DNA of 17,597 nucleotides, taken from NCBI GenBank assembly GCA_051439605.1, contig JBFRWN010000129.1, forward strand, positions 1-17,597. Direction: 5' to 3'. Source of the DNA: Synechococcus sp. Lineage in GTDB: Bacteria; Cyanobacteriota; Cyanobacteriia; Thermostichales; PCC-7336. Positions 1 through 17,597 of the stretch are shown piece after piece; within the stretch, counting starts at the first letter, position 1; each line of letters opens with the position of its first letter. Both the position numbers and the translations under genes were made by a program. The notes below the pieces were generated by a model. It ran no database searches, had not been told where the DNA came from, and saw only the letters and a list, made by a program, of their open reading frames with translations.

Positions 1-72
1 TTTCAAACCGAACTATCTGAAGTCTCCTGGGGTGGTGGGGGCTTTCATGGAGCAGGTGAGTATTGGAAGAGT

Positions 73-444: not shown

Positions 445-553
445 ATTCCCTCGGCAACCTCTCTTACCTTCACCACCAGCAATCTTTAAATCCTACCAAT
501 AGCAGCAGCAAAATCTTCAAAACCTTACCTTCGTGTAACACAAACAAGCCAGC

Positions 554-584
554 AAAAAAACCGAGAGAGAACCCTCGGCTTTTC
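554..584 (-). terminator. Rho-independent terminator after the nuclease gene
   Basis: Minus strand AAAGCCGAGGG-TTCT-CTCTCGGT followed by a T run, about 60 nt past the stop at 643. Confidence 0.8.
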
Positions 585-642
585 AAAAACTTTTATGGCT
601 GCTTACGCGAAGGCTAAAGACCTTCAGACAAACCGTCGGTCA

Positions 643-1968: not shown

Positions 1969-2399
1969 AATGTTTTCCTCAAAAGTGAGTTACTGTTAAG
2001 GGAAGATTATGCAAAGTTTAAGAGCAGCCTCGATATAGACTAAAATCTTCAAAAATGCCGAGAAGCTCCCAGGCAAAGTTAAGGCCATATCGACCCTTGT
2101 CTAGACCCATCAGCCATTCAAACGATAAGCATCAGATAGAGAGGCAACCTTTACTATTTCTGACAGTGCCATAGCTATGCAAGCTATAGGAATGAAAGGA
2201 GAGACAGCAGAATAACTCGTATCTTGATTTAACCAATTCTCCTGGAACAGTCACTGAATTACCGTCAATCAGTTCCAAATTCAATAGAAAACTTTATATT
2301 TGTACTGGACTGCACCGTTATTACTTTAAGGATAATAATTTACTCACTTTAGTTTACGTATTATATGCTGTGTGTCGATCGCGATCGGATTGGTTTCGG

Positions 2400-2480
2400 A
2401 TGAAGAATATTGTTGAAGGCCTACCTAAAAACTTAGAGAAAGAAGTATTTGAAATTCTTGCCAACAGCGAAACCATCAAA
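2400..2480 (+). pseudogene. N-terminal remnant of a small cupin-domain protein
   Basis: ATG 2400 reads MKNIVEGLPKNLEKEVFEILANSETIK, like the start of small cupins that continue IERIVSxG. Here it breaks off and runs into the SDR start region (frame closes at 2507). Confidence 0.5.
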
Positions 2481-2488
2481 ATGTCGCT

Positions 2489-2876
2489 ATGTCTAAAGTT
2501 GCCCTGATTACTGGTGTCTCCTCTGGAATTGGTCGAGCGACGGCTGAAGTGTTTGCTCGCCAGGGGTATCGGCTGGCGCTGGCGGCCCGATCGCTGGAGC
2601 CGCTGGCCGACGTGGCGATCGCGATCGAGAAAGCCACCGCAGCGGGCGATGTTTGTGGGTTCAGAATCTGCTAGGGATGAGTACCGTCGGCAGATGGAGA
2701 AAGCGGTGGATAGTTTTACCAGTCAGCGGCCTGAGGAGATTGCGGAGGCGATTTGGGATGCTTGTCGGACGGGTAAGAAAGATGTGGTGGTGGGTCCCAT
2801 ACAGGCTGCTACGGCCGCCTATCAACTTTTTCCTGGGTTGGTTGGACCCTTGATGGGGCGGACGTCCATAGGGTGA
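2489..2876 (+). pseudogene. Short-chain dehydrogenase/reductase with large internal deletion and frameshift
   Basis: First frame gives the Rossmann motif VALITGVSSGIGRATA...LALAARS. After ~2640 another frame gives an SDR C-terminus (RAMFVG...QRPEEIAEAIWDA...KKDVVVG...YQLFP). NNAG and YxxxK regions are absent. Confidence 0.85.
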
Positions 2877-3045
2877 ATTGAAATGAACCCAGATCTATAC
2901 GTTGTCAGTCTCAACAATCGTGGGTCTAATTGGCCGTAAAGCGATCGCCAAGTCGTTAGGACAATTCTGTGGCGACAACCTCCACGGTGACTGAAGCCAC
3001 TGTCTGACCTGAAATGGCCCCAACTTACTTATTTTTTCGCGAGGA

Positions 3046-3573
3046 ATGGCAATGAGGTTCCGCATCGAGCTGGTCAAGCTGCTGGCAGGGTTGGCGATCG
3101 CCGTCTTATCGATGTTTTCGGCTGGATGCTTGCAGGCGATCGCCCAAGCCCCACCCGATGGAGAAACCACAGTTGGAGTTCCTGCTGTGGCAGAGGCACC
3201 CTTAATCGCACAACAAGATGAAGAAATCCAGGCGTTCGCAGATAGCCAATACGACTATTGGGACGCCAAAGTCCTGGCCAGTTTCTGGGGGACGGATACT
3301 TGGGATGCGAAAGCTCGAATCGGCCGCAAAATCCTCTGGGGCGTAGAAAATGTGGCCTACCTCGAACAGATGTTGTTGGATGCCCGCATAGAAGCCCTGA
3401 ATACAGCCGATCCCATCGACTACTTTTTCGAGGGGTACACCTACGACGACGCCGAGCAACTGAGGGATTTTTGGGGAGAGATCTCCACTTGGGATACAAA
3501 ATTGCGCATTGGCCGCAATCTCATCATGGGTAACGATGAGGTGGTGGAAACCGCTCTGGGACTTGTCTGGTAG
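3046..3573 (+). CDS. Secreted hypothetical protein with two ~62-aa Trp/Tyr-rich repeats
   Basis: Signal-like N-terminus. Repeats YDYWDAKVLASFWG-TDTWDAKARIGRKILWG and YTYDDAEQLRDFWGEISTWDTKLRIGRNLIMG. Confidence 0.8.
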   Translation: MAMRFRIELVKLLAGLAIAVLSMFSAGCLQAIAQAPPDGETTVGVPAVAEAPLIAQQDEEIQAFADSQYDYWDAKVLASFWGTDTWDAKARIGRKILWGVENVAYLEQMLLDARIEALNTADPIDYFFEGYTYDDAEQLRDFWGEISTWDTKLRIGRNLIMGNDEVVETALGLVW

Positions 3574-3588
3574 CGATAGATTGCGACG

Positions 3589-4680
3589 ATGGCTGTTTCT
3601 ACCGACTTCTCCTGGAAGGTTGGGATTGAAATCGAGCTGATGGCCCCGCGAGGCAGCAGTCGAGCCACGCTGGCACAAGCGATCGCCGAGAAATTTAACG
3701 GCGAGGTGCGTCGCTTTTTTCACCCCCAATCGGAACCCAGCAAAATAGCCGGCACTCCCGTACTAGAAAACCTGACGCTGGGGTTTGAAGTGCGCGATCG
3801 GCAAGGGTTGCCCGTTGCTCGGTGCGTAGACGATCTGACTCTGCAGGCGGATTGTCAGCGCCAACATCCCCCTCGACCCGGTTGGTATCGCATTGTCAGC
3901 GACGATATCCGGCTGTTGCGACTGGTACAGCGGGTGGCCAATCCGGAAGCTTCGCTAGAACAAGTTCTGAACCCTGTGGCGAGTCTGTTTGGCGTTCAAC
4001 CCGAAGGGGGGCCGGGGGGAATGATCCGGGTGCGCGATCGAGTGGGGCCACCGATCGCCATTGCGGCCCCTCTGCCGGGGGAGCGGGAGCGCCCTTGTGA
4101 ATTGATTGTGCCGCCCATGGTCGGAACTGAAGGCGATCGCATCGGTCAACTGCTGGAGATCGCACGCACCTGTGGGTTTACCATTCCAGTGGAGGGGGCC
4201 ATTCACCTGCATTTTGATGCCACTCGGCTCTGCTGTCCCCGCGTTCTGCGCAACTTAGTACGCTGGTTTAACCGGTATGGCCTGGACCTGAAGCAACATT
4301 TTGGCACCAACCCTCACTGCCAACGTTTGGGTCACTGGCCTGACTCCCTCCTTAGTTTGGTGGAACAGCCTGAATGGCTCGATTTAGACTGGCCAACTGC
4401 CCGCGATCGCCTAAGGGCAACTGGGCTGACAAAATACTGTGATTTCAACCTCAGTAACATCGCTCTGGCCCTTCCTGACAAACACACGTTTGAGGTGCGT
4501 ATTTTGCCGGTGTGGATGGAGGCGGAGCCCATTCTGCAGGCGATCGGGCTGCTGAGTTTTATCCTGCAGACTTCCATTGTGGAAGAAAAAGCCGATCTAA
4601 AGGTGCCGTTCGCCAAGCTGTTGGAGCAGTATCGCCAACTAGAATCAGCTAACGCTGACAAGCAGGTGTTTACCGCTTAA
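3589..4680 (+). CDS. Amidoligase family protein (COOH-NH2 ligase, glutamine synthetase-like fold)
   Basis: Motifs VGIEIE, CELIVPP, GAIHLHFD, KYCDFN, TFEVR in the order expected for Amidoligase_2-type enzymes. Confidence 0.8.
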   Translation: MAVSTDFSWKVGIEIELMAPRGSSRATLAQAIAEKFNGEVRRFFHPQSEPSKIAGTPVLENLTLGFEVRDRQGLPVARCVDDLTLQADCQRQHPPRPGWYRIVSDDIRLLRLVQRVANPEASLEQVLNPVASLFGVQPEGGPGGMIRVRDRVGPPIAIAAPLPGERERPCELIVPPMVGTEGDRIGQLLEIARTCGFTIPVEGAIHLHFDATRLCCPRVLRNLVRWFNRYGLDLKQHFGTNPHCQRLGHWPDSLLSLVEQPEWLDLDWPTARDRLRATGLTKYCDFNLSNIALALPDKHTFEVRILPVWMEAEPILQAIGLLSFILQTSIVEEKADLKVPFAKLLEQYRQLESANADKQVFTA

Positions 4681-4751
4681 ATTCATCGCGTAAATTCGCT
4701 GTCAAATCGGGGCTCGACGGTAGAATGCCGTAGCTTCATTCATGCAAGAGA

Positions 4752-5252
4752 ATGACTTACTCCATCGGGGATCTGAACCAGGCCAGCGAAGAGGACTTTG
4801 TCAACATTCTGGGAGCTGTTTTTGAGGACAGTCCTGAAATTGCTCGTCAGGTTTGGCAGCTGCGACCCTTTCGCGATCGCCACCATCTCCAGCAATGCAT
4901 GACCCAGATTGTTAGAAATACGAGTGAAGCGCAGCAAATTGCCCTGATTCGCGCCCATCCCGACCTGGGCAGTAAAGCCAAAATGGCGGATGCCTCCGTG
5001 CAAGAACAGGCAGGTGTGGGTTTCGATCGCCTCTTGCCAGCAGAGTACGAGTTATTCCTACGGTTGAATCAACAGTACAAAGCGACCTTCGGTTTCCCCT
5101 TTGTCATTGCTGTGAAGAACCATACGAAGTCGAGCATTCTGAACGCTTTTGAAAGCCGCCTATCCAATACTGTGGAGACCGAGCGGAAACAGGCGATCGC
5201 AGAAATTATTCAAATTGCTCACCTTCGCCTGCAGAATTTAATTCCTAACTAG
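4752..5252 (+). CDS. uraD: OHCU decarboxylase (urate degradation)
   Basis: LGAVFEDSP, RPF, LIRAHPDLG, SVQEQAGVG, YKATFGFPFVIAV, IAHLRL. Confidence 0.93.
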   Translation: MTYSIGDLNQASEEDFVNILGAVFEDSPEIARQVWQLRPFRDRHHLQQCMTQIVRNTSEAQQIALIRAHPDLGSKAKMADASVQEQAGVGFDRLLPAEYELFLRLNQQYKATFGFPFVIAVKNHTKSSILNAFESRLSNTVETERKQAIAEIIQIAHLRLQNLIPN

Positions 5253-5313
5253 CACTCTTAAAATTGGATATTTCTATATAATTACCGAACACACCTCTAT
5301 CCATACAACAGAT

Positions 5314-5556
5314 CTAACTATCTTTATCTTTATCTTGGATGCCCAGCTCTTTACGACTAATCTTTAATTCTTTGACCAGCGCTTTTATTTGTTGATAGGC
5401 ATCCTCTGAAGTAAGCTTTCCACTGGTTTGCAGAGATACTATGTATCCAGTTTTTAAAGCAAATTCTTGAAGGTTAGCATTAAAAACAAAGTCTTCTGGA
5501 GTAAACTTCCCCTGATATTGATAAAGGGGATATAAGAAATCATCTTTGCTAACCAC
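5314..5556 (-). CDS. Small conserved cyanobacterial protein (DUF7219-like)
   Basis: FLYP..Y.GKFTPE..VFNANLQEFA...SLQTSGKL...AYQQIK.L...LK.SRKELGI. AGGAG 7 nt before GTG 5556 favours this start over TTG 5562. Confidence 0.8.
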   Translation of the reverse strand: MVSKDDFLYPLYQYQGKFTPEDFVFNANLQEFALKTGYIVSLQTSGKLTSEDAYQQIKALVKELKISRKELGIQDKDKDS

Positions 5557-5848
5557 TGGCAAACTCCTACAACAGGTGCTTTAAATATAATAGTTGACCG
5601 TAAGCCATTGAATTTATCTCTCAATTCATGGTTACTTAGCCAAAACAGTAGGGACGAATTCGAGCTACAAAAGTAGCAATCTGTAATAAATAGCAACTGT
5701 CAAAGAGTAGACATTGCTTGCGCTAAACTTCCCCTTCTTCGATCGCCAGAGCTTGATAACTCTGTATGGAGGAATACTTCACTAAATCCTCAAGACCGTT
5801 TCCTAGAATTTTGACGGAGCACGAGGGCAGGGTTGGCCGAGGTGCAGG

Positions 5849-6835
5849 ATGGACGCAGAACTGACAGTCCGAGATAGCTTGACCCACGCTAATGGGGGCA
5901 ATCGTTCCACCCCTCTGGTTGGGGAGTACGCTCTCTCCGTCATCCACAAGCACTATCAACAGATGACCGATTGCGAGCAAGGGGTGATAGAAGACCTAGA
6001 TCCCGAGTATTTGCATCAAATGAGGGTCAACAGTCGGCGGCTGGGGGCGGCTTTGCGGATCTTCGACAAGGTCGTGAAATTACCCAAAGCTGCTCGCGAG
6101 TCTCGCGTGCGGCAACTGACCAAGACTTTGGGGGAGCTGCGCGATCTGGATGTTCAAATCGATCGCCTGGAAGGAGAGTACTATCCGTGCATTCATCAAA
6201 AAGAACAAAAGCGATTGAGTAAACTGCTCGATACGTTTGCGAAGCGGCGGAGGCAAGCACTGGCAGGCGTCAGATTGTTTCTTTCCCATTCCCGCTACAA
6301 AAAATTCAAGCAGGGGTTTTCCAAGTGGTTCGATCGCCCAAAGTTCGAACTTATTGCGACTTTACCGGTAAGCCTCATCCTGCCGGAACTCCTCAGTCCG
6401 CTGCTGGCCGATCTGCTGATTCATCCAGGGTGGCTAGTCTCTGCCACCCCTCAATCAAAGGAGGACCTCGTTCACCTGCACAACCTGCGCAAAACCTGTA
6501 AGTATATTCGCTATCAAACAGAGTTATTTACCGACTTTTATCCCAAGCACTATTCCACCTGGATTAAAGAACTCAAGTACCTGCAAGACAAACTCGGGAC
6601 AGTCCAAGATCTGAGGGTTTTGACAGCAACCCTAACAGCGATTGGACCTAAACCCGCGAAACTCCCCGAACTCAAGCAATTGATGCAAGACAGGCAAATC
6701 GATGAATTATTTGATTGGGAAGATATCCGTCATAAATATCTAGATTTAGAGTTTCGCAAGTCCTTACATCTAACGATCGTTTCACCCTCGTATTCAACGA
6801 ATCAAAGTAGCGTTGCAGTCATCAGTGGAGAGTAA
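5849..6835 (+). CDS. CHAD domain protein (polyphosphate-binding family)
   Basis: DPEYLHQMRVNSRRL, LGELRDLDV, LHNLRKTCKYIRYQTE, LQDKLGTVQD. Confidence 0.9.
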   Translation: MDAELTVRDSLTHANGGNRSTPLVGEYALSVIHKHYQQMTDCEQGVIEDLDPEYLHQMRVNSRRLGAALRIFDKVVKLPKAARESRVRQLTKTLGELRDLDVQIDRLEGEYYPCIHQKEQKRLSKLLDTFAKRRRQALAGVRLFLSHSRYKKFKQGFSKWFDRPKFELIATLPVSLILPELLSPLLADLLIHPGWLVSATPQSKEDLVHLHNLRKTCKYIRYQTELFTDFYPKHYSTWIKELKYLQDKLGTVQDLRVLTATLTAIGPKPAKLPELKQLMQDRQIDELFDWEDIRHKYLDLEFRKSLHLTIVSPSYSTNQSSVAVISGE

Positions 6836-6839
6836 GACC

Positions 6840-8405
6840 GTGACTCATTTACTGCAGGAAGATCGAACCTACCTGCCCTACAATTATTGCCGAACAGACC
6901 TGGCTGAACCAGCACATTTATTGAACGACCTTTTATATTTACGAGAGAAGGTTGTTCGCGATGGTCAGGAAATCTTTCAGCTCTGGAAACCGAGGATTGC
7001 GAGATCGGCTTTTCTTCAGAGTGCTCTCAACTTGGCCTACTATTTAATTCTCAGAAATCACGATCTTCGTGCCATCCAAATGGCACTCATGCCTTTAGGG
7101 TTATCCTCACTCGGCCGTCTTGAATCGCGAGTTTTAACCAATCTCGATGCCGTGATTTCCAGTTTAGGTAGGATTGCCTCCGTTCAGGCGGACGATTTAC
7201 CGCAACGCCCTTCCCTCGAAGCCTTCTTTAAAGGCGAACAACGGTTGCAACAGAATACTGACGAACTGTTTGGCCCAATGTTCGGCGATCGCGCGGTCAG
7301 AATTATGGTGACGATGCCTTCTGAAGCCGCAGAAAATTACGAATTGGTGCGCGAACTTCTCAAACGTGGCATGAATTGCGCGCGGATTAACTGTGCCCAC
7401 GATACACAAACCGCTTGGTCTGGAATGGTTCAGAATGTCAGACGTGCAGAACTGGAAACGGGTCAGCGCTGCAAGGTGCTGATGGATTTGTCCGGTCCCA
7501 AACCGCGGACTGTCCTACCTCCAGACTGTGGCAAGCCATTGCGAGTGCGTAAAGGCGATACGCTTCTCCTTGCGAAACATCATTGCGATCGGCAGGATAA
7601 TTTTCAACCCGTAGTCTATTGCTCGATCCCGGAAGCGATCGATCGCTTAGAAGTGGGCCATCAGGTCTGGATAGACGATGGCAAAATTGGTGCCGTTGTT
7701 TTAGAAACTGATGAGTCTGCCGCAACGCTGCGGATTACTTTTGCGAAGGAAAAAGGCAGCAAGTTACGGTCCCAGAAAGGGCTTAATTTTCCCAATACAA
7801 ATCTGAACCTCAGTCCCCTGACCCCAAAGGACATCGCCGATTTGGACTTTGTGGTTCCCAATGCAGACATTATCGGTTGCTCGTTTGTCCAGACGGCAGG
7901 GGACATTGCACTGCTACAAGGGGAAATTGCCGCGCGCCTGCATCCCGAACAACCGCTGCCCGGCACGATCGCAAAAATTGAAACCCCTTTAGCGGTCCGC
8001 AATTTGCCCGAAATTGTCGTTCAATCCGCCGGCAAACAGCCCTTAGGGATCATGATTGCACGGGGGGATTTGGCGATCGAACTTGGTTACCAACGCTTAG
8101 CAGAAATCCAGGAAGAAATCCTGTGGATTTGCGAAGCGTCCCACATTCCCGTCATCTGGGCCACTCAAGTGTTGGAGCAGTTGGTCAAACAAGGCATTCC
8201 ATCGCGGGCGGAGATGACTGATGCGGCCATGGCGGAGCGAGCTGAATGCGTCATGCTTAATAAAGGTGGTTTCATTTGCGATGCAGTATCGTTTCTCGAT
8301 GGAGTATTGCGTAGGATGAAGGGGCACCAATTCAAGAAAACCCCGCAGTTGCGGGCGCTCCAGTCTTGGAAACAATATTTTGAGGGGGCACATCTGTTCG
8401 TCTAA
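6840..8405 (+). CDS. pyk: Pyruvate kinase, atypical (N-terminal extension, no C-terminal PK_C domain)
   Basis: RIMVTMPS, ARINCAH, DLSGPKPR, IDDGKI, KGLNFP, IAKIET, MIARGDLAIE, WATQVLE, PSRAEMTD, ECVMLNKG. GTG 6840 follows GGAG, 4 nt after the CHAD stop (ORF track extends to TTG 6813). Confidence 0.9.
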   Translation: MTHLLQEDRTYLPYNYCRTDLAEPAHLLNDLLYLREKVVRDGQEIFQLWKPRIARSAFLQSALNLAYYLILRNHDLRAIQMALMPLGLSSLGRLESRVLTNLDAVISSLGRIASVQADDLPQRPSLEAFFKGEQRLQQNTDELFGPMFGDRAVRIMVTMPSEAAENYELVRELLKRGMNCARINCAHDTQTAWSGMVQNVRRAELETGQRCKVLMDLSGPKPRTVLPPDCGKPLRVRKGDTLLLAKHHCDRQDNFQPVVYCSIPEAIDRLEVGHQVWIDDGKIGAVVLETDESAATLRITFAKEKGSKLRSQKGLNFPNTNLNLSPLTPKDIADLDFVVPNADIIGCSFVQTAGDIALLQGEIAARLHPEQPLPGTIAKIETPLAVRNLPEIVVQSAGKQPLGIMIARGDLAIELGYQRLAEIQEEILWICEASHIPVIWATQVLEQLVKQGIPSRAEMTDAAMAERAECVMLNKGGFICDAVSFLDGVLRRMKGHQFKKTPQLRALQSWKQYFEGAHLFV

Positions 8406-8545
8406 GAGCAGAGCCAGGATTCGCAACTGTCCGCTTGTTCGAGATAACAAAGCTTGCGATGCTGACTCTCATGTCCTGCTGTCGTTGTTTGTGGTTGTGG
8501 GATGCAACCCTCTCCGCTTGACTCTTCTACTCCCCAGACAATTCG

Positions 8546-8887
8546 GGCGATCGCCTGGTGGTTCTGGCCACCATCGACAGTTTGCGCCGTATCGAACGAG
8601 GAGATATCACTCCAGCGCAGCATTGGCAGTTGAGTGCCCTCAAGCCCCTCAACCCCAATGTATTGTTCGAGGCGGCGGGAGTTCTACATCAAATAACCGG
8701 CTGCGATTTGCAAGTGGCACGGGAGTTTTTGGAACATTTGCCAGGCAAATTACGGTTGGATATGTACGAGCACCAAGCGTTCGCGTTGTGGAAACGTCTC
8801 AGCCGCATGAAAATGCTACCTGTGCGGCTAGAGCGGTGGCAGGCAAACTCTGACAAGTTGCAAGAAAGCGATTGTGGCAGCATCTGA
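8546..8887 (+). pseudogene. C-terminal fragment resembling cyanobacterial TrkA-domain potassium channel proteins
   Basis: GDRLVVLATIDSLRRIERG...LFEAAGVLHQITGCDLQVAREFLEHLPGKL...YEHQA matches my recollection of the end of long NAD-binding K+ channel proteins. In-frame TGA at 8519-8521, no convincing start. Confidence 0.6.
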
Positions 8888-9045
8888 AATGACAAATCGA
8901 ATGGGAACGTTTCCCGAATTTGAAGGCATTACGTCAACGAGTTCAAGAACTTTTAGATGGCTTGAGCGATACTGTTATTCAATCCTTCACTGGATGGGAT
9001 TTCATCATTGACGCCGTATGAAGTTCCTCTTTAGAGATTTGGTAT
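8866..9045 (+). mobile_element. IS630-family remnant (transposase C-terminus and right end)
   Basis: Frame from 8866 reads KRLWQHLK*QIEWERFPNLKALRQRVQELLDGLSDTVIQSFTGWDFIIDAV* (internal TGA 8890), typical of IS630 transposase ends. Followed by GAGATTTGGTAT, a likely terminal IR. Confidence 0.75.
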
Positions 9046-9727
9046 TGGACCGTCTGCGACTATCGACAATCGCAATCAGTATAGCGAGTAAGATCGCTAC
9101 ATTAAATATCTCTTCAGGGAACTCAAACCATAGCCCTTGTAGGAAAAGCTCGAAGCCAATTAGAATCAGTAAAACCAGGATAACTATATTGACAGAAGGG
9201 TATCGATCAATCAATGTGGCTACTTTGTCGATTGCAAACAAACGAATAACGCCTGACATCAAAAAAATAAAGATAATGGATGGAAAGTCTTGGGCTCTGG
9301 AAGCAACTACAATAATTGTATCTAGTGATAAGATTAAGTTTACAATGGTCATTTCGAGCATTAACAGAGGAAATTTTTCGGCTGTACGCCTTAGTTGCTG
9401 AGTACCTTCCAGATCTCTAGAATACAGATATAATTCATGACTACTTTTTACGATCAAAAACGATCCCGCGATGAATAGAGAAATCGCATCCGGTGTAAAT
9501 TCAATTTCGAACAGTGTAAAAAGTGCTTCATTCTGCCTCAAAAAAGCTCCGAGTAATCCAATCAGAACAATTCTTCCTATGAATTCGCTGAAGGTACCCC
9601 ACGCGATCGCTTGCCGATGTTTCTGCTGCGGCAACCCTTTAACTATTGAGGTCATGTAAATAGCATTGTCAACATCAAGCAAAGTGACAAAAAAGCTTTT
9701 CCGGAGCAATATAAGAAATTGAATCAT
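9005..9727 (-). CDS. TerC family integral membrane protein (divergent)
   Basis: LLDVDNAIYM, IAGSFLIVKSSHEL, ILSLDTII, IDRYPSV...LILIGFEL; multiple hydrophobic helices. Confidence 0.82.
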   Translation of the reverse strand: MIQFLILLRKSFFVTLLDVDNAIYMTSIVKGLPQQKHRQAIAWGTFSEFIGRIVLIGLLGAFLRQNEALFTLFEIEFTPDAISLFIAGSFLIVKSSHELYLYSRDLEGTQQLRRTAEKFPLLMLEMTIVNLILSLDTIIVVASRAQDFPSIIFIFLMSGVIRLFAIDKVATLIDRYPSVNIVILVLLILIGFELFLQGLWFEFPEEIFNVAILLAILIAIVDSRRRSNTKSLKRNFIRRQ

Positions 9728-9737
9728 TGATAAATTA

Positions 9738-10958
9738 TCATTTTGCTAATTTCAAGGATCGGGCAACTGGAGCCAAGGTAAACCCTTGGATGGTGACTGA
9801 CACTAAAACGATAAAGAAAACCACATTAAATATCACCCGAGCATCCTGTATTCCTGCAGCAATGGGGGCGATCGCCAAAATAATCGGTACGGCTCCCCTC
9901 AGCCCTACCCAAGAAATAAACAGTTTTTCGGGGGGGAGGTATTTCGTTAACACCATGCTGAGCAATACGCTCAAAGGTCGAGCAACAAACATCAGACAGA
10001 GGGCAAGGGCTACGGCGATTGGAGCGATCGCCAGCAGTTGAGACGGAAATACCAACAGTCCCAAGACTAAAAACATCACAATTTGCATCAACCAGGCAAT
10101 TCCTTCGTGAAACTCCACAATGCTTTGTTTTTGTCGGAGGGGGCGGTTGCCAAATACCACGCCTGCTAAGTAGACCGCTAAAAATCCATTGCCCTGCAAA
10201 GCAGCCGCAATTCCGTAAATCAATAACGCCCGTGCCATCATCAAGACGGGATACAGCGCTTTGGTATCCAGATGAAGGCGATTGGCAAACCAACTCATGA
10301 CGTATCCACCGCCAATTCCCACTGCCGCCCCCACGCCAAATTGCAAGAGAAATGTAGAGAGCAATTCAACCGCAGAGGCATTGGCGGCAGTCAAGGTGCT
10401 GACCAAAGTGGTTGTGAGCAATACCGCCATGGGATCGTTGCTGCCCGATTCCAGCTCCAGCAATGGTTGCAAGTTCCCCTTCAGTTCTAAATTGCTCGTT
10501 CTGAGGACAGAAAACACAGCAGCAGCATCCGTAGAGGAAACAATTGCCCCCAACAGCAATCCCTCCCCCCAACTAATCCCGTTAAATCCAATGGCAAACG
10601 AAGAAAAACTACCCAAGATGAACCAGGTGAACGTGCCAAAGATGACCATGGTGAGCACGACACCTACCGTAGAAAGCACCAACCCCTGCCCTATCACCGG
10701 CCGGATGCGCTGCCATTGGGTCCCCAGCCCCCCGGAAAACAGAATAAAAATTAAGGCAACATTCCCGATGGCATTGGCTGCCACGTAATTTTCGAAGTGG
10801 ATTCCGCCCAACCCCTCCGATCCCGACAGCATGCCAATCAGCAAAAATAACAGCAGTGAAGGGACACCAAACTTGTTCGATAATATGCTGGCATAAACGC
10901 TGGTCAGCAACAGGATTCCGACAACAATGCAGAGAAATTCGAATAGCCCTACAGACAT
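9738..10958 (-). CDS. cvrA: Potassium/proton antiporter (NhaP2/CvrA, CPA1), membrane domain only
   Basis: GVPSLLLFLLIGMLSGSEGLGGIHF, VSSTDAAAVFSVLR, LLELESGSNDPMA, GNGFLAVY, SWVGLRGAVPIILA, IFNVVFFIV...QG. Confidence 0.9.
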   Translation of the reverse strand: MSVGLFEFLCIVVGILLLTSVYASILSNKFGVPSLLLFLLIGMLSGSEGLGGIHFENYVAANAIGNVALIFILFSGGLGTQWQRIRPVIGQGLVLSTVGVVLTMVIFGTFTWFILGSFSSFAIGFNGISWGEGLLLGAIVSSTDAAAVFSVLRTSNLELKGNLQPLLELESGSNDPMAVLLTTTLVSTLTAANASAVELLSTFLLQFGVGAAVGIGGGYVMSWFANRLHLDTKALYPVLMMARALLIYGIAAALQGNGFLAVYLAGVVFGNRPLRQKQSIVEFHEGIAWLMQIVMFLVLGLLVFPSQLLAIAPIAVALALCLMFVARPLSVLLSMVLTKYLPPEKLFISWVGLRGAVPIILAIAPIAAGIQDARVIFNVVFFIVLVSVTIQGFTLAPVARSLKLAK

Positions 10959-10983
10959 AGCTGATCTCTATCAATAGAAGTCT

Positions 10984-11604
10984 TTACTTGAATTCTTCAA
11001 TGACGCGCCCCTGGCTGAGCAGCGTATAGCTTTGGTTGCCTGAAGCAGCCAGCATGATGGCTTCTACCAACGGATCGCTGACCTCGCTTTCCGACACCCA
11101 TTCCACAATGAAATTCGCCCCCGACCCCCCACTGCGATCGCTTCTTGCAATGCCAAACTCGGTGGTTGCCATCGGTGGCAAGCGTAAATTTTGGGCCGAA
11201 AGACAGTCCCTCACCAACCGACCGTTGGTGTCGTAATAGCGAATGGCAGTAATCAGGATGGACTCGGTTTCGCTGGTATTGCGAACGCTGAGAAACCCCG
11301 ACATGTCCAGCGTTCTCAACCCCCCGGATAGTGAGATTTGGGAATAGAAGGGAACGTAAACCTTCTGTCCTCTAGCGATGTTTGCAATGTCTCGATCTTT
11401 ACTTTCAACCACCGCTACCGGGGGGTCATCGGGAAGCGAAGGGGGCTGCTGGCAAGTTTCGATGGACGGGTTATTCGGCCTTTGAGTGGTTTGTTGGCTC
11501 TCTGGAACGGTACAGGAACCCAGCAGAACAAGGATAGATGCAAGGGGCCAGATCAAATAAAGCCTCATAAAGTTCTCACCTATCAATACTGAACCTGGCT
11601 GCAT
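10984..11604 (-). CDS. DUF3124 family lipoprotein
   Basis: GQKVYVPFYSQI, LSVRNTS, RYYDTNGRLVR, GGSGANFIVEW, PLVEAIM. Lipobox-like LLGS-C. Alternative start ATG 11568. Confidence 0.88.
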   Translation of the reverse strand: MQPGSVLIGENFMRLYLIWPLASILVLLGSCTVPESQQTTQRPNNPSIETCQQPPSLPDDPPVAVVESKDRDIANIARGQKVYVPFYSQISLSGGLRTLDMSGFLSVRNTSETESILITAIRYYDTNGRLVRDCLSAQNLRLPPMATTEFGIARSDRSGGSGANFIVEWVSESEVSDPLVEAIMLAASGNQSYTLLSQGRVIEEFK

Positions 11605-11680
11605 CCTACTCCTGTATTTCGCGATTTCATCGCATCGGCACTATCTCTGGAAAGGTTCAAGCCCCGTCAAGAATCTCCGG

Positions 11681-12442
11681 ATGCGGTTCGTAAATCTGCA
11701 CGGTGTAGTTCCAATCCTCCGAGTTCAGCAGGCCATCGATCCGACCGTCGCCACCCCTTTCACTGGCGATCGCGAATTTGCCCAACTCTCCAACCCGATC
11801 GGAGTGTTTCACTTGGCTGTCCAGAACGGATTGACAACTGCAGCAGCAGCTTGTTCGTGGTTTGCTGAATTTTACAACCGCGCCCCCTTTAATCCGGTTC
11901 GCGATCGCCAGCAAAATGACGAGCGCATGCCCATTCAACACGGCAGCTTCTATTGGGAGGATTCCTACCCTAACTCCCATCTGCTTGCGGATGCCGAATT
12001 GCTGCGCTACTGGTGGAATCCAGATTTCCTGTTGGTACATTCTAGGGGGATTGAGAATGCCGGTCGTTGCTTTGGCTCCGACTCGAAAGAATATCTCGGG
12101 CAAGTCCAGATCGTTGATAATCTTCTGGCCCACGCTATTCCCCGTTGGCAACAGTCGGGATACGACATTGTCATTGTTTCCACTCTTGGCATGACTCCCG
12201 ACGGCGATCGAGGGGATAACTCGGCTAAGGTGCAGGATGTGCCCCTGTTTTGCATCGGGCAATCGTTCGCCCCCGGTGTCTACCTAGATGGACTCTCTCA
12301 ATTGGCGATCGCGCCTATGATTTGCCAGTTATTGGGCTTTCCCCTAGCTTCAACGATGCAATTGATTCCCGTTCCAGGCTTTCCTCAGGGCGTTTTACAC
12401 CCAGAAACTAACGAGGTCCGAGCAATGGTTGCAGCAACATAG
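11681..12442 (+). CDS. Alkaline phosphatase superfamily (nucleotide pyrophosphatase-like) protein, probably catalytically inactive
   Basis: FHLA..NGLTTAAAA.SWFAEFYNRAPF...RDR...PIQHG.FY.ED.YP.SHL.ADAE.LR...PDFLLVH, VPLF.IG. The usual metal-binding motifs are substituted or missing. Confidence 0.75.
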   Translation: MRFVNLHGVVPILRVQQAIDPTVATPFTGDREFAQLSNPIGVFHLAVQNGLTTAAAACSWFAEFYNRAPFNPVRDRQQNDERMPIQHGSFYWEDSYPNSHLLADAELLRYWWNPDFLLVHSRGIENAGRCFGSDSKEYLGQVQIVDNLLAHAIPRWQQSGYDIVIVSTLGMTPDGDRGDNSAKVQDVPLFCIGQSFAPGVYLDGLSQLAIAPMICQLLGFPLASTMQLIPVPGFPQGVLHPETNEVRAMVAAT

Positions 12443-12549
12443 TCAAGAAAATAAAGCTAGAAATAAAAACAAGCAGAAGATCGATAGATCGTCAGAATTT
12501 GTATTCATAAAAAGCAAAAGATAAGGATTGTTGCTTCCAGTAAAAAGTA

Positions 12550-13158: not shown

Positions 13159-13337
13159 ATTCGCCCGGAAGAAAGAGAATAAAGTTGCTTTGGACAGTTT
13201 ACTTCAAGAGGATTAATAGGCTATGTCAGCCTAACAAAAGGGTTTGAAGCGAGAGTCTGAGCAACGCCAACGACATTTTTGGGAGGGTCACTTCTCTCTG
13301 ACATCGAAGCAAGGTTGCAGTCCGAGGCAAGACGTGG

Positions 13338-13353
13338 TTCTAACGTGTTAGCT
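13338..13353 (-). other. Collapsed attC (R'' and R' boxes with the inner stem missing)
   Basis: Minus strand AGCTAAC-AC-GTTAGAA, at the distal end of the YaaC-like cassette. Begins like the 15654 site (CTAACAC) and ends like the 15571 and 14090 sites (CGTTAGAA). Confidence 0.45.
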
Positions 13354-13597
13354 ATCTGTCATTTTATCAATTGATGAGGTATGCCGAAAATTTCCTGGTT
13401 GGACATACTAATTAGGGGAAAACATTACTTGCTGACAGACGATGCACTGAAAGCTTCCACTAAAACCGAGTTCTATATTCAGAATCTGGACTATTCTCCT
13501 ATCTGTCTAGGACTAGAGACATAATTTAAAATTGCTAAGTTGTTTTCCGTTATAAATTAACATTAGACGATGAATTATTTGCTTGTAGGAGTTGATT

Positions 13598-13981
13598 TTA
13601 GCCAAGAGGAAAAGTAAGACCTTGATGCTCTAATGTGCTTTCAAAACCAATACCTCTAACTGACAAAAAGTACTTCACAAGATTTGGCATTCCATAGCTA
13701 AGTAAGAGTCGCTTTCATAGGAAATTTAGTGGCATCAGCAGCTTTATAGAAATCTGCTGCTAGTTGCGAATAGTATTTAGCTCTAATGAAATGTTCCCGA
13801 TTTTTAGTGCATTTTTTTGGAATTTTCTGAGTAACCCACGTATGAAGATAATGACTAAGGAGCAGCCGTCAGGACGTATGCGGTTCCAGGTGGTACCACA
13901 AAATAAAAGTATCGTACATTCTGGTATTTGTATAAAGCAGGTGTGCCTTTCTCTGGCTTTCTTAGTATCTCTAGTACTCAA
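13598..13981 (-). pseudogene. Decayed YaaC-like gene in a cassette
   Basis: Joining frames gives KGTPALYKYQNVRYFYFVVPPGTAYVLTAAP*S / YLHTWVTQKI...RAKYYSQLAADFYKAADATKFPMKATLT / YGMPNLVKYFLSVRGIGFESTLEHQGLTFPLG*. Three frameshifts plus stops. Confidence 0.55.
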
Positions 13982-14089
13982 ATTCCTTGAATGCTGTAGC
14001 AGATTTAAGTTTTACATTAGACTCAGTTTTCCTAAGTTTGCGTAATTAAATTAACTGTTTCGCCAAGACGCATTCGCAGAATTATTGAT

Positions 14090-14176
14090 TTCTAACGGTG
14101 ATAGTCAGCGGGGTGGAATAGTTGTATTTTCAAATTACAACCTCTCGCTTTCACGTCCGCTGCACTGAAGTTAGAA
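14090..14176 (-). other. attC recombination site
   Basis: TTCTAAC ttc AGT(G)CAGCGG...GTTGTA..TACAAC...CCGCTGACT atcacc GTTAGAA; 87 bp; the R''-L'' spacer is about 2 nt short. Confidence 0.78.
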
Positions 14177-14293
14177 GGACAATTTTGAGTGCCAGATTTC
14201 ATACGGTAGTCGCTCTTAAGCGCAAGCCAAGTGCCTGTATAACTTTAAGTACGGTGGCAAACTCTGGATTTCCCTCAGTCGATAGAGCTTTGT

Positions 14294-15355
14294 CTAAGTA
14301 CAGGACAAAAACTCCAAAGCATGTAGGAACTGTGCGTTTTTATGCTGTAGATCGAGCATGATAGAGCGGAGATGATCGAGTCCATAGCGGAAAATACTTC
14401 TGGCCTTTCTGCCATGGTTCTTGATTTCTATGGGCTCAAACTCGTGCATCCAGTAGCCAATGTGGACCGCCCACGCCAAAGCGAGAGAGAGCAAAGCAAA
14501 GAGTTTGCCTAAGCGCTCAGAATCCCTCAGATGAGTATCCTCAAGACGAAAGCCTCGGGTTTTCAACATGCCGAAGAGAGTTTCAATTCCCCAACGCTGG
14601 GCGTAATCGGCAATGGCGCTTTGGGGCGCAGTCTGGGTGGCGATGACCAGTAGAGAGCCATCATCCAACCTCAACGCTGCAATATATAGCCAATGGCCCC
14701 ACAGTCGTCGTTTCTTGCGCAGTATCCTTTGCTGTCCGGGTTGGAGATCGGCAAAGATGGTCTTCACCGATAACGAGCGCCGTCCATCGAAAAGCTGATG
14801 ATTGCACTTGATACGCATCCGGAAAGGAGTCTCGGGAGCCGCCTTGAGGTAGCTGAACCACAACTGCCCGACAAACTCTCGATCCCCGCACAGATAGGCA
14901 ACGTTCGCCTCACCGAAATGTTCGAGAAAGCGACCCATTAGGTCCATACGCTCAAGGGTGTTGGAGTTCCCCCGCTTCTCTAGCAGGGTCCACACCAAGG
15001 GAATGGCAATGCCTTGATGAACAACTCCCAGCACCAAGATGTTGAAGACGCTCTGGCCAAATTGCCACTCAGTTCGGTCCACCGAGAGCACCCAGGGTTC
15101 GGGGATATCGAGTATGGCTACAAGCGCTTTTGCTATTGCCACTTCGTCTACATCAAACCCGCGAAAGAAGCGTTGGATGCGCTTGTAACTGGACTCAACG
15201 AGGGTGTTGCCACCAAAAGCCACCGCTAGCTGGCTAAAGTCGACTGTTCTGACCCGAATCAGTGCCATCAAGAACATCGCTACGAAGCTCAGACGGGCTC
15301 CATGCCAGGGTAAGTGAGCTCGCAACTGTTCTCTGAGCAGGTTAATCTCGTTCAT
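14294..15355 (-). CDS. IS4-family DDE transposase
   Basis: SVDRTEW (D), GDREF (D), YAQRWGIETLFGMLK (YREK motif with E). Stop codon lies in the right IR. Confidence 0.95.
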   Translation of the reverse strand: MNEINLLREQLRAHLPWHGARLSFVAMFLMALIRVRTVDFSQLAVAFGGNTLVESSYKRIQRFFRGFDVDEVAIAKALVAILDIPEPWVLSVDRTEWQFGQSVFNILVLGVVHQGIAIPLVWTLLEKRGNSNTLERMDLMGRFLEHFGEANVAYLCGDREFVGQLWFSYLKAAPETPFRMRIKCNHQLFDGRRSLSVKTIFADLQPGQQRILRKKRRLWGHWLYIAALRLDDGSLLVIATQTAPQSAIADYAQRWGIETLFGMLKTRGFRLEDTHLRDSERLGKLFALLSLALAWAVHIGYWMHEFEPIEIKNHGRKARSIFRYGLDHLRSIMLDLQHKNAQFLHALEFLSCT

Positions 15356-15430
15356 GGGGTATCGTTTGGTTGTGGTTATCCTACGAAACCCCCTCCTACT
15401 CTACTTTTCAAGTTTTTGTCCTGTACTCAG
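14294..15430 (-). mobile_element. Complete IS4-family insertion sequence (IS10-like), 1137 bp
   Basis: IRs CTAAGTACAGGACAAAAACT / CTGAGTACAGGACAAAAACT (19/20). 9-bp direct repeat GAGCTTTGT at 14285-14293 and 15431-15439. Confidence 0.95.
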
Positions 15431-15570
15431 GAGCTTTGTAAAGGCTCTCTCTTCCAAGACCAGTTTCGCGAGCAATTTGTGTCATTCCTTCGGAACGAGC
15501 GATGTCCCCTAAAGCCGCAGCAATTAGTGTGGGATCAACGTGCATCAATTTTGTAAAAGGCTGGAAGTAC

Positions 15571-15654
15571 TTCTAACGGTGAAGTTCAATGGCAGCAGTG
15601 ATTTTTAATCCCGATTAATTGCTGATACTCCGCCATTGCAACGCAGTGTTAGTT
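15571..15654 (-). other. attC recombination site
   Basis: AACTAAC actgc GTT(G)CAATGGCGG...TTAATC gg GATTAA...CTGCCATTGAAC ttcacc GTTAGAA; 84 bp; 5/6-nt spacers. Confidence 0.82.
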
Positions 15655-15729
15655 AGCGGAAGCGTCCAAATCATACGACAGAACCTAAGCTGATAGCATC
15701 AGCGTTAGTTCATCTTTCCGCGAGGATAG

Positions 15730-16599
15730 TTGAAAATCATGGCAAGTAAGCACTCTTCCCTCTTCCAAGACTCCTCTAAGCCTTTGATTTTTGGGCATCG
15801 TGGCGTACCAGAAGAGCATCAAGAAAATACTATGACCGGGTTCCAACGGGCCATAGAGTTGGGTCTAGATGGAGTAGAACTGGATGTCTTTTTGACAAAA
15901 GATAAGCAGTTAGTCGTGTTTCACGATCTGGACACCGAACGACTGACTGGTACTCCTGGCACTATTACCGCTATGACCTGGCCTGAAATCCAGCAACTTA
16001 CCATTAAGCGAGAGTTGAACGTAGGAGACAAGGTCATCGACTATGGTCGTGAAAAAAAGATTGAGCTACTGAAAGATGTACTGGAAGAGACACGAGGCAA
16101 ACTGCTGGTAAACATCGAAATCAAAGCCTACAGTCTAGATTTTGGCCAGCGTCATACAGGCACTGCTGTCGCTAACCTGATTCGCCAAATGGGCCTGGAG
16201 TCCAACGTCTTTGTAACGTCGTTCAATTTCTGGCCTCTGATCTGGCTGGAACGCACCTACCCCGGTCTGGAATCAGGATTCACCTATTCTCCTGCGTTTA
16301 TCAAAAATGGCTTACTCCGTAATCTAATGGAATCCAGTTGGATGGGACGTCTGATTGGGGCAACCCAAACTAACATGAGTTTGACCATGTTCGATGAAGA
16401 CACTGTGGAACGGGTTCACCAAAAGGGGTTATCAATTGGAGCTTGGACCGTATTTTCCCAAGATTCTAAGTGGTTAGGCGACCCATTGGCTCCAGAGCAA
16501 GAGTTACAAATCGTTCGCGACCTAACCGCACGAGGGATAGATTATTTCATCACCGATGACCCCGTGAAACTTCGTCAAGTGTTGGTTCGGAAAGTTTAA
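15730..16599 (+). CDS. Glycerophosphodiester phosphodiesterase (GDPD family)
   Basis: IFGHRG, ENT, GVELDV, VVFHD, NIEIK, AWTV, ITDDP. Alternative start ATG 15739. Confidence 0.92.
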   Translation: MKIMASKHSSLFQDSSKPLIFGHRGVPEEHQENTMTGFQRAIELGLDGVELDVFLTKDKQLVVFHDLDTERLTGTPGTITAMTWPEIQQLTIKRELNVGDKVIDYGREKKIELLKDVLEETRGKLLVNIEIKAYSLDFGQRHTGTAVANLIRQMGLESNVFVTSFNFWPLIWLERTYPGLESGFTYSPAFIKNGLLRNLMESSWMGRLIGATQTNMSLTMFDEDTVERVHQKGLSIGAWTVFSQDSKWLGDPLAPEQELQIVRDLTARGIDYFITDDPVKLRQVLVRKV

Positions 16600-16797
16600 C
16601 GTTCCTGTGGACCAATCGTTTCATATTCAACGCTTGCGGCACTCCCTTCACTGTCTTTGCATCAAGGTTTTGGCGTCTACGATAGGCGATCGCACGTTGC
16701 CTCAGCGCACTATAGAGATGGGCGAGTACGTTCAGCTCCATGGCACCGCATCCTACAGACAGCTGTCCTCCCGTGTTCTGGCAGACAAGTGAGAGCG

Positions 16798-16892
16798 GGC
16801 TAACGATGGAGATCTCCGGGCAGGCGGACCATCACGAGCGATCGTGGAAAAAACGATAACGTAGTCCGCTTCGGTGCATCGCTTGGTTATAC
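16798..16892 (-). other. attC recombination site of the GNAT cassette
   Basis: GTATAAC caagc GAT(G)CACCG..GCGGACTA...TGGTCCGC..CGGAGATC tccatc GTTAGCC; 95 bp. The GNAT stop codon TAA is inside R''. Confidence 0.85.
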
Positions 16893-17435
16893 GGACATTT
16901 TGCGTTCAAGTGTAATCGTATCGGAGTAATCCCCGTCACCATATGTGCTTGTTCGATCTGCAAGCGACAATCGGGATGATCGAAAACCAGCCTTTTCGTA
17001 TGCGCGGATAGCCCGTTGATTGCGGCGCGAAGGACGAACGATAAAAGTTTCCACCGCAAAGTCGGCGTGAAGGTGGCGCATCAACGCAACCATTGCATCC
17101 GTTCCGTATCCATGACCGCAGCAGCTTTGCGATCGCATCCAAATGTCCAATTCCACGATAGATCGTTCGGAATCAAGTCCATCGTAATTGATGTGCCCAA
17201 CTGCTTTGCCATCGACCTCGATGATGAAAGAGCATCCACAGTGAGGTCGTGACCCATCGAAGAAATGCGGTGCGTAATCACCGAAGAACTCATCCCAAGT
17301 GGGAATCGGCACTTCAGGGAATGTAGGCGGTCCCATCATGGATGCCGTGACATCAGATGCGACGAGCCACATGTAGATGTCCCGGCGGTCATTTGTTGTA
17401 GCGGGACGAAGCGTTATTCTCGTGCCACGGATCAT
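16887..17435 (-). CDS. GNAT (RimJ/RimL-like) N-acetyltransferase, gene cassette
   Basis: ITLRPAT, VGHINY, ELDIWM, CGHGYGTDAM, NQRAIRAYEKAGF. ATG 17465 in the ORF track lies inside the upstream attC, so ATG 17435 is preferred. Confidence 0.88.
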   Translation of the reverse strand: MIRGTRITLRPATTNDRRDIYMWLVASDVTASMMGPPTFPEVPIPTWDEFFGDYAPHFFDGSRPHCGCSFIIEVDGKAVGHINYDGLDSERSIVELDIWMRSQSCCGHGYGTDAMVALMRHLHADFAVETFIVRPSRRNQRAIRAYEKAGFRSSRLSLADRTSTYGDGDYSDTITLERKMSV

Positions 17436-17450
17436 GGTCGCTTTCTTTCC

Positions 17451-17537
17451 GCATAACGTTTCCATTCACCGGACGTTAAAACCAATCATTCAAAACAAGC
17501 TCTTAGACTCTGTTCCGGTGCAATGGAATTGTTAGAA
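17451..17537 (-). other. attC recombination site
   Basis: TTCTAAC aaTTCCATT(G)CACCGGA(A)C...GTCCGGTGAATGGAAac GTTATGC; 87 bp; two unpaired bases on the left arm. Confidence 0.85.
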
Positions 17538-17554
17538 GTCATATCAGTTAGACC

Positions 17555-17597
17555 TTAAGCCATAGGTTGAACTGTCAGTTTAAAGCCTAGAGCTTTT
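17555..17597 (-). CDS. 3' end of a probable addiction-module antitoxin (runs off the window)
   Basis: KALGFKLTVQPMA*, similar to the QALGLRLRA end of the antitoxin at 14199; stop 18 nt before an attC. Only 13 residues are visible. Confidence 0.5.
   Translation of the reverse strand, partial: KALGFKLTVQPMA

Follow-up and report, generated by a model that had tools for sequence, protein, structure and literature searches.

An integron-type gene-cassette array, very probably, at the end of a contig from a cyanobacterium, Synechococcus sp.

We describe a region of a Synechococcus sp. contig (GCA_051439605.1, JBFRWN010000129.1; C129 below) that is very probably the far end of an integron-type gene-cassette array, with four co-oriented attC sites and cargo between them at positions 13229-17597. 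The window, that is, the whole stretch of DNA analysed (17,597 nt), is the entire contig; its right edge is the contig end, and the array is therefore cut by the assembly. Site D lies only 60 bp from that end, and C129 as assembled carries no integrase. The host genome contains the photosystem II reaction-centre family PF00124, and HIP1 occurs at 859 per Mb. A first-pass annotation made from the sequence had proposed an integron-type array in a cyanobacterium, and the attC scores, the recurrence of the GNAT cassette and the branching of read-derived contigs all support this proposal. The array was likely built by an integron integrase (IntI). By analogy with studied integrons, this enzyme would cleave each attC as a folded bottom strand, with the cut between G and TT, so as to insert or excise one gene-plus-attC unit per event; it is likely encoded elsewhere in the genome. 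The features of the region are collected in Table 1.

Table 1. Features of the array and its left flank (positions in the window; paired spacers are R''-L'' and the spacer before R')
Feature	Position	Strand	Evidence and remarks
Hydrophobic protein, 202 aa	12550..13158	-	Starts 71 bp after the lone R' box; no Pfam family
Lone R'-like box	13229..13235	-	Sequence; not scored as attC
AT-rich (38% GC) unit without recognisable gene	13236..14095	-	ORF, Pfam and tblastx searches
R''-like and R'-like boxes 2 nt apart	13338..13353	.	Not significant: 6.4 bits, E 0.57 (1.6 kb searched)
attC site A	14090..14176	-	87 bp; 37.5 bits, E 2.8e-7; R''-L'' spacer 3 nt, 2 nt short
3' part of TIGR02684 antidote gene	14199..14291	-	Profile positions 62-88, E 5e-8
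IS4-family insertion sequence, 1137 bp	14294..15430	-	NF033591, E 3e-72; transposase 14294-15355
5' remnant of TIGR02684 addiction-module antidote gene	15440..15542	-	Profile positions 29-60, E 4e-12
attC site B	15571..15654	-	84 bp; canonical spacers 5/6; 42.1 bits, E 2.3e-8
Intact glycerophosphodiester phosphodiesterase (GDPD) gene in unit 15577-16803, oriented against the array	15730..16599	+	PF03009, E 3e-33
attC site C	16798..16892	-	95 bp; spacers 5/6; L stem with two mismatches; 31.1 bits, E 9.2e-6
GNAT acetyltransferase cassette, 653 bp	16804..17456	-	PF13302, E 4e-16
attC site D	17451..17537	-	87 bp; spacers 6/6; top-strand extra G; 48.6 bits, E 6.6e-10
ORF truncated at the contig edge; 3'-terminal 14 codons with the stop	17555..17596	-	Translation; too short for a family search

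The four sites are imperfect palindromes for which the minus strand is the top strand throughout. Read on that strand, each consists of TAAC (R''), a spacer, three pairs, an extra G, the L stem, a variable loop, a 6-nt spacer and GTTA (R'). The extra G on the top strand becomes an extrahelical C in the folded bottom strand. All four sites contain the attC cores (RYYYAAC ... GTTRRRY), the L''/L' arms, the extrahelical base and the unpaired spacer; two boxes deviate from the strict core consensus, AACTAAC as R'' in site B and GTTAGAA as R' in site A. The R''-L'' spacers of sites A to D are 3, 5, 5 and 6 nt, and recombination at site A is likely impaired because its spacer is only 3 nt. The sites start 1481 (IS included), 1227 and 653 bp apart, and the crossover in site D is predicted between 17456 and 17457.

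To score the sites we used our own covariance model (R1), not that of IntegronFinder, trained on 13 sites outside the window. It recognised all four at E values from 7e-10 to 9e-6, and its sole other match below E=1 was the reverse strand of site D. Among the training sites, 6 of the 13 L-stem pairs vary on both sides, a covariation that is partly circular because the sites had been chosen for pairing. A palindrome rule gave a mean of 0.007 sites and a maximum of 1 in 300 dinucleotide shuffles of 13229-17597, against 4 observed, a generous control because the rule was written after the sites were seen; genome-wide, the same threshold returned 10 matches, 4 of them in this region. The bottom strands fold favourably, as the first-pass annotation had suggested checking, with z-scores of -2.1, -3.3, -2.0 and -3.4. 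The model scores and shuffles bear out the earlier description of minus-strand palindromes with attC architecture. Attention had also been drawn to the possibility that the sites would escape an attC model and that similar palindromes would be scattered without common orientation; the model does score them, and attC-like sites elsewhere in the genome lie mostly in co-oriented clusters. Palindromes that form hairpins between genes could be terminators, REP-like repeats or miniature transposons rather than recombination sites, an explanation we consider highly improbable: the sites vary in sequence, but their architecture is fixed, they are co-oriented and they mark exact borders of homology. 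Moreover, none of the four coincides with any of the 4 terminator-like sites found, and an Rfam search returned no fitting family.

These borders are those of the GNAT cassette. Five further records (L034, L092, L093, L095 and L096) carry it at 92-97% identity, with different neighbours. Of the copies that extend far enough at the respective end, all six begin to match at 17457-17472 and four of five cease to match at 16797-16803, with flanks unlike the window in all. The gene and its downstream attC thus recur as a moving unit with borders at G/TT, and site C travels with the gene in L092, L093, L096 and L034. The ORF extends over 16887-17465 from its first ATG, the start lying likely near 17438, and its stop codon falls within R'' of site C (TAA at 16889-16887), just as the first-pass annotation had noted. 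In another cyanobacterial genus the cassette sits directly behind a class A beta-lactamase cassette, and the arrays therefore share a pool that includes resistance-type genes. A role of the GNAT protein itself as an aminoglycoside resistance enzyme is not supported: its best score is 39 bits, whereas the cut-offs for aminoglycoside acetyltransferases, all of which it misses, are 250-450. One contig from run X5, of depth 3, joins the cassette start at 17457 to sequence resembling the repeats upstream of an integrase on contig C88; a motif based on the resemblance occurs only 6 times genome-wide, including 2 occurrences at the C88 repeats.

Beyond the GNAT cassette, the ORF end at the contig edge belongs to the cassette of site D and is likely, by eye only, the end of a second antitoxin. 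Read-derived contigs of 414 nt (run X1) and 411 nt (run X2) continue beyond the edge; the read evidence comes from runs X1-X5, runs X6-X20 having shares below 0.2. In run X1 the 414-nt contig covers 17471-17597 at depth 55.8 and branches at 17451 into the GNAT cassette (depth 28.7) and an unrelated 744-nt contig (depth 30.2) that is absent from the assembly, from which we infer that the right-edge cassette is present twice in this genome. Run X1 may be the source sample of the genome, and contig depth is not copy number. None of the read-derived contigs skips a whole cassette; their sole clean joint is an IS-free allele.

Leftward the array decays, through an IS4 insertion, a truncated antitoxin, a short-spacer attC and a gene-less unit. 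The antidote gene has lost its toxin gene and about its first 30 codons, and it is split by the IS4 element, which the first-pass annotation did not describe. The element has 25-bp terminal inverted repeats and a 9-bp target duplication at 14285-14293 and 15431-15439, and runs X3 and X4 show its empty site. L039 and L051 have intact toxin-antidote pairs with an attC behind them, and in 4 of 12 other cyanobacterial loci the antidote gene is directly followed by an attC.

The unit at 13236-14095 is likely a decayed or gene-less cassette. It contains no ATG-started ORF of at least 60 aa; its longest frames are two ORFs of 73 and 93 aa that start with TTG and overlap. When all six frames were translated across stop codons, none had a Pfam match at E<0.01 (best E 0.017); the one frame compared with NCBIfam gave E 0.014. 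Neither tblastx against the rest of the genome and the fetched loci nor a DNA search of 300 genomes of the class gave a match. The earlier claim of one recognisable gene per unit consequently holds cleanly for the GNAT and phosphodiesterase units only, and fails for this gene-less unit and the IS4-split antitoxin fragment. The paired boxes at 13338..13353 are possibly a collapsed attC, and the lone R'-like box possibly what is left of a last attC that has decayed. We considered a fifth attC at 13229-13322 and dropped it, as the stretch received no model score and had a fold z of +0.7; nothing scores as attC at 13229, the left limit in the first-pass annotation. The neighbouring 202-aa protein is possibly the last cargo gene, or simply flank. 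It has 644 homologues, the named ones from several phyla; a search of 300 further genomes from the phylum found none at E<=1e-20, and neither of the 2 homologous loci tested had an attC.

Of 32 loci examined for the phosphodiesterase gene (GDPD), 28 have homologues at 62-79%, most of the records being cyanobacterial. An attC adjoined the gene in none of 34 homologous loci (34 of the 35 non-self loci, L091 being left out; several have short flanks), with a best E of 0.63 at 3.6 kb from the gene, and 16 loci rerun without filters gave a best attC E of 1.6. The gene is inverted and is not the cassette-typical cargo as which it had been described. A promoter scan found 2 sites where 6.8 were expected, and neither precedes GDPD. 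An R'-like box over the GDPD stop codon suggested a decayed attC immediately behind it, but the best score there was 2.8 bits and the idea was dropped as unsupported.

The unit might not be a true cassette but resident DNA, flanked on both sides by cassettes that were inserted separately at secondary (attG-type) sites. The inverted gene, the lack of an adjacent attC in those 34 loci and about 200 unexplained bases between the GDPD stop and site C all point this way, and insertion at secondary sites is documented in the part of bioRxiv 10.1101/2022.09.11.507474 used here. We nevertheless regard it as unlikely: site B requires a cassette and the GDPD unit is the DNA upstream of it, site C ends in a canonical R' box, and the gene has no DNA match in five relatives. 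There is also a parallel on contig C111, where an inverted dihydroorotase lies between attC sites; the gene is beside an attC in 5 of 29 other loci, and is likewise inverted beside an attC in five other cyanobacterial genomes. None of the papers listed in our literature search concerns dihydroorotase or GDPD in cassettes. It seems to us improbable that inverted cassettes of ordinary metabolic genes, expressed independently of the array promoter, form a distinct class in cyanobacterial arrays.

Where the integrase resides bears on how the array is classified. IntI scores above the TIGR02249 cut-off on contigs C88 and C7, and a fragment is present on C61. The C88 copy has an internal stop, and Arg replaces the conserved His of GHKD. 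The C7 copy has its start cut off by the contig edge; it has R-K-H-R-H-Y, and Gly where four other aligned proteins have Trp. With one copy broken and the other incomplete, no integrase in the assembly is shown to be intact. C129 has no attI-like motif, the array head lying beyond the contig end, and the region upstream of the C88 integrase matches only C31 elsewhere.

We lean, by a little, towards an array without an adjoining integrase, either a CALIN served in trans or one now dormant. That it is instead the tail of a complete integron, with attI and intI just across the gap on C7 or C88, has a substantial chance of being true, if short of an even one: both contigs carry a plus-strand intI with the array side at their left end, a geometry that fits the right end of C129, and C7 begins inside intI. 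However, C129 has no sequence overlap with any other contig, its flanking genes are not found or not syntenic in five relatives, and no metagenome contig holds the edge sequence in an exact-match search. Array pieces on C6, C111, C5 and C132 compete for the same two integrases, and in the complete genome G002 six of eight clusters have no nearby intI match at E<=1e-60. Half of CALINs occur in replicons encoding IntI, according to the portion of PMC4889954 on which we draw.

As a CALIN or an integron tail, the array is an ordinary new example of a catalogued class, such cyanobacterial arrays being already known. Chromosomal integrons and CALINs, in the same portion of PMC4889954, resemble it in several ways: their attC sites are co-oriented and have R and L boxes with an extrahelical base and an unpaired spacer, each unit holds roughly one gene, and insertion sequences occur within arrays; they differ in that here the contig ends at the array and the left part is decayed. 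The earlier remark that integrons are poorly characterised in cyanobacteria was overstated; cyanobacterial integrons are not unusual. Integrons have been reported in Cyanobacteria (PMC4889954, in that portion; see also PMC8618304), and separate attC covariance models exist for 11 taxa, Cyanobacteria among them, each built on 51-505 sites (PMC8352920, PMC9176274); we found IntI in 18 of 301 sampled genomes of the phylum and in 20 of 41 genomes of our relatives search. Our literature search, outside which most subscription papers lie, found no study devoted to cyanobacterial integrons. Compared with known toxin-antitoxin cassettes (PMC8618304; bioRxiv 10.1101/2023.11.21.568050), the antidote cassette here is toxin-less and IS-disrupted, and what lies inverted is not a toxin-antitoxin pair but a gene for a metabolic enzyme. 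SALIN/attG insertion, as presented in the main text of bioRxiv 10.1101/2022.09.11.507474, explains scattered single or small attC clusters such as those in G000, G002 and G035; insertion was tested there in E. coli, and cyanobacteria are not mentioned.

In summary, the array by itself adds one cyanobacterial cassette array to a known class and has little significance alone. It does offer a clean case of cassettes being exchanged within marine sediment communities. Greater weight would attach to the inverted metabolic cargo if this were shown to be a route of cassette creation. Cassette creation has been modelled as mRNA-templated. If the inverted cassettes arose when a resident gene acquired an attC on its upstream side, they would capture cassette creation in progress; such a route, if true, is not predicted by the mRNA-templated model and would provide a test case for cassette birth.

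The attC array in the window is real, and the first-pass annotation had recognised it correctly; our analysis corrects its details. A rule-based scan found exactly four attC-like sites in the window, all with their top strand on the minus strand, and in each the parts run in the order TAAC, spacer, three pairs, extra G, stem, loop, 6-nt spacer and GTTA. Against the four observed, 300 dinucleotide shuffles of 13229-17597 averaged 0.007 sites and never held more than 1; across the whole genome the rule gave 10 hits. Because this rule was tuned on the window's own sites, we also built a covariance model, for which 13 sites not in the window served as the training set: 5 lie on other contigs and 8 come from relatives. 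The model scored D at 48.6, B at 42.1, A at 37.5 and C at 31.1 bits, values that speak for family likeness rather than function, since the training sites were picked with the same architecture in mind. Genome-wide, where 150 of 599 candidates were scored, it matched 22 at E<=5: five on contig C111, four in the window, pairs on C16, C25, C6 and C5, plus singles, with one shared orientation within each multi-site contig. Four palindromes in common minus orientation, as first proposed, are thus borne out by scan, shuffles and model, and similar sites elsewhere form mostly co-oriented clusters rather than an unoriented scatter. Bottom-strand folding, a check the annotation had suggested, beats most shuffles at all four sites. 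Its placing of the array start at 13229 does not stand as an attC, as nothing there scores with the covariance model. Site A is likely impaired, judging from its short spacer.

attC sites and cargo units of the array (units a-e listed right to left)
Feature	Coordinates	Strand	Remarks
attC site A	14090-14176	-	R''-side spacer 3 nt
attC site B	15571-15654	-	R''-side spacer 5 nt
attC site C	16798-16892	-	R''-side spacer 5 nt
attC site D	17451-17537	-	R''-side spacer 6 nt
(a) ORF end, last 14 codons			cut by contig end; antitoxin end, judged by eye
(b) GNAT acetyltransferase cassette	16804-17456		stop codon inside R''
(c) GDPD, intact	15730-16599	+	strand opposite to array
(d) TIGR02684 antidote fragment			toxin and first third missing; IS4 element splits gene
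IS4 element in (d)	14294-15430
(e) AT-rich unit, 860 bp			no recognisable gene

The borders of the GNAT cassette, together with the attC scores, bear out an integron-type cassette array in a cyanobacterium. A metagenome search with GNAT returned 11 loci, six of them close (80-95% protein identity), and a seventh close copy lies in the relative G005. Homology begins within 17457-17472 in each of the six copies covering this side of the cassette; of the five covering the other side, four lose it at 16797-16803; in the exception, L094 (83%), it ends with the gene and there is no attC. These borders coincide with the predicted crossovers, 17456/17457 and 16803/16804. Of the six close loci from metagenomes, four have an adjacent attC; L094 and L097 have none. 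In G005, of another genus of the family, the cassette (L034:2557-4377, contig C163; 93% DNA identity) immediately follows a class A beta-lactamase cassette, whose product is above the general class A cut-off and nearest to RTG/CARB types, yet under their cut-offs. At L034:2557-2563 and L096:425-433 the attC of the GNAT cassette ends GTG or GTC, not GTT, with unrelated DNA beyond, which looks like secondary-site insertion.

Contigs derived from public metagenome runs bear on the right edge. The X1 contig spanning 17471-17597 is twice as deep as its neighbour, the window's single-copy part having ~27-36-fold depth in this run, and it continues into two different sequences, which diverge at 17451. 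From this doubling we infer that the edge cassette is present twice in the genome, its second copy followed by another cassette, with the limits that depth is not copy number and that the assembly lacks the second branch; a second copy would also explain the assembly break. In run X5, one low-depth contig links the GNAT cassette at 17457 to sequence resembling the repeats upstream of intI on C88, as expected for this cassette in first position at an attI site. Speaking against mobility, none of the read-derived contigs skips a whole cassette.

The array decays towards its far end, as the IS-split, truncated antidote is followed by a gene-less unit and a lone R' box. The IS4 element is flanked by a 9-bp duplication; an IS-free allele of the antitoxin cassette (window 14284-15431) occurs in X3 and X4, runs of two studies, and the insertion is therefore likely recent or strain-specific. 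Of 12 other cyanobacterial loci with the antidote gene, 4 have an attC directly 3' of it. Left of the R'-like box at 13229 is a hydrophobic 202-aa protein, either array cargo or simply flanking sequence; it has 644 homologues and matches no family. The first-pass reading of the GNAT stop codon was right; one recognisable gene per unit holds cleanly for GNAT and GDPD, but not for the split antidote or the 860-bp unit. Likewise, cassette-typical cargo is an apt description of the toxin-antitoxin and acetyltransferase genes (PMC8618304), but not of GDPD, whose homologues have varied neighbourhoods, with an attC adjacent in none of the 34 loci tested.

The inverted GDPD would require its own promoter, and a consensus promoter scan found none for it; cassette-borne promoters are well known (PMC8876359). 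A dihydroorotase on C111 (2591-3619), with no other close match to this type in the genome, is also inverted between two attC. Among the best 30 of 71 matches, five of the 29 other loci (L110, L113, L122, L125, L127) have an oppositely oriented attC within 300 nt of the gene, but DNA similarity among the loci does not reach the attC sites. An inverted cassette is on record for a toxin-antitoxin pair (bioRxiv 10.1101/2023.11.21.568050); our literature search found nothing on GDPD or dihydroorotase in cassettes. It seems improbable that these inverted units are newly made cassettes, since the nearest GDPD shares 73% DNA identity and no recent donor is visible.

C111 (L009:1-5824) is cassette array throughout, with five minus-strand attC, of which two were training sites and two score only E 0.06. 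Its right end, the left end of C132, and C77 and C104 have in common a sequence of 110-140 bp (94-99%) that lies at a contig end or close to one; it adjoins an attC on C132 and may be one end of an attC-targeting group II intron. Among complete genomes, G002:C1 carries 42 dispersed attC (five of them training sites): two arrays, of 8 and 12 sites, lie next to partial intI genes, and the rest form six clusters of 2-4 and seven singles. G035:C1 carries 31, also dispersed. A 180-bp periodicity among some G002 sites points to cassettes without genes.

Within the host genome, two contigs, C88 and C7, hold an intI above the TIGR02249 cut-off, and C61 holds a fragment. The C88 intI has an internal stop and Arg in place of the His of GHKD; that of C7 is truncated by the contig start and keeps its catalytic residues, and has Gly where all four other aligned proteins keep Trp, a position we take to be W229 of IntI1. 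W229 contacts an extrahelical base (PMC3053210) and is conserved in 182 of 182 Shewanella integrases (PMC9229058). Besides its broken intI, the C88 integron (L001:1170-2445) has cassettes and an attI-like region rich in repeats, and it adjoins a gene resembling, by eye, one for a conjugation coupling protein; C31, which gave no intI match, carries the attI-like region again at 83%.

Whether either integrase belongs to the window array is a matter of weighing. Candidates for the integrase expected beyond 17597 are those of C88 and C7, either of which contigs could join C129 by geometry, but contig overlap, synteny and metagenome search gave no link to either. In G002, a relative with a complete genome, no intI match at E<=1e-60 lies near six of the eight attC clusters, although the two largest have one. 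We lean towards an array without an adjacent integrase (CALIN); one joined to a linked integrase is a tentative but serious alternative.

The host is a cyanobacterium, given its photosystem II reaction-centre family matches (six in the genome) and HIP1 density (859 per Mb genome-wide). Its assembly comprises 4.9 Mb in 143 contigs, with C129 covered end to end by the window; 19 HIP1 motifs lie within 1-12500 and only 2 to the right. Marine sediment metagenomes are the best-matching public runs, and the top run may be the genome's own source sample. At 643-1968 lies an Endonuclease/exonuclease/phosphatase-family protein with a weak SH3 match (65% DNA match in G005), with no relation to the array; 3046-4680 holds a 175-aa protein with an internal repeat (189-bp spacing) and no Pfam family, and, next to it, an amidoligase-family gene.

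IntI would bind the folded bottom strand of attC, with strand choice set by the extrahelical base and the unpaired spacer; attC x attC recombination would excise a cassette, and attI would receive it. Action on the folded strand, the determinants of strand choice, excision and attI insertion are established (PMC4889954, PMC8946536), and several integrases tolerate or favour cytosine as the extrahelical base (PMC3053210). By analogy, this mechanism would operate at the window array, where its products alone are seen. Cyanobacterial integrons, described at first as poorly characterised, are in print (PMC4889954, PMC8618304), as is an attC model specific to Cyanobacteria (PMC8352920, PMC9176274), and the tables of these papers may list arrays of relatives; our literature search found no study devoted to cyanobacterial integrons. 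Counting the host's own genome each time, IntI exceeds the cut-off in 20 of the 41 genomes from the search for relatives, and a phylum-wide sample gave 18 of 301. Several damaged integron platforms are seen in this genome, and the window array adds to a class already known in cyanobacteria.
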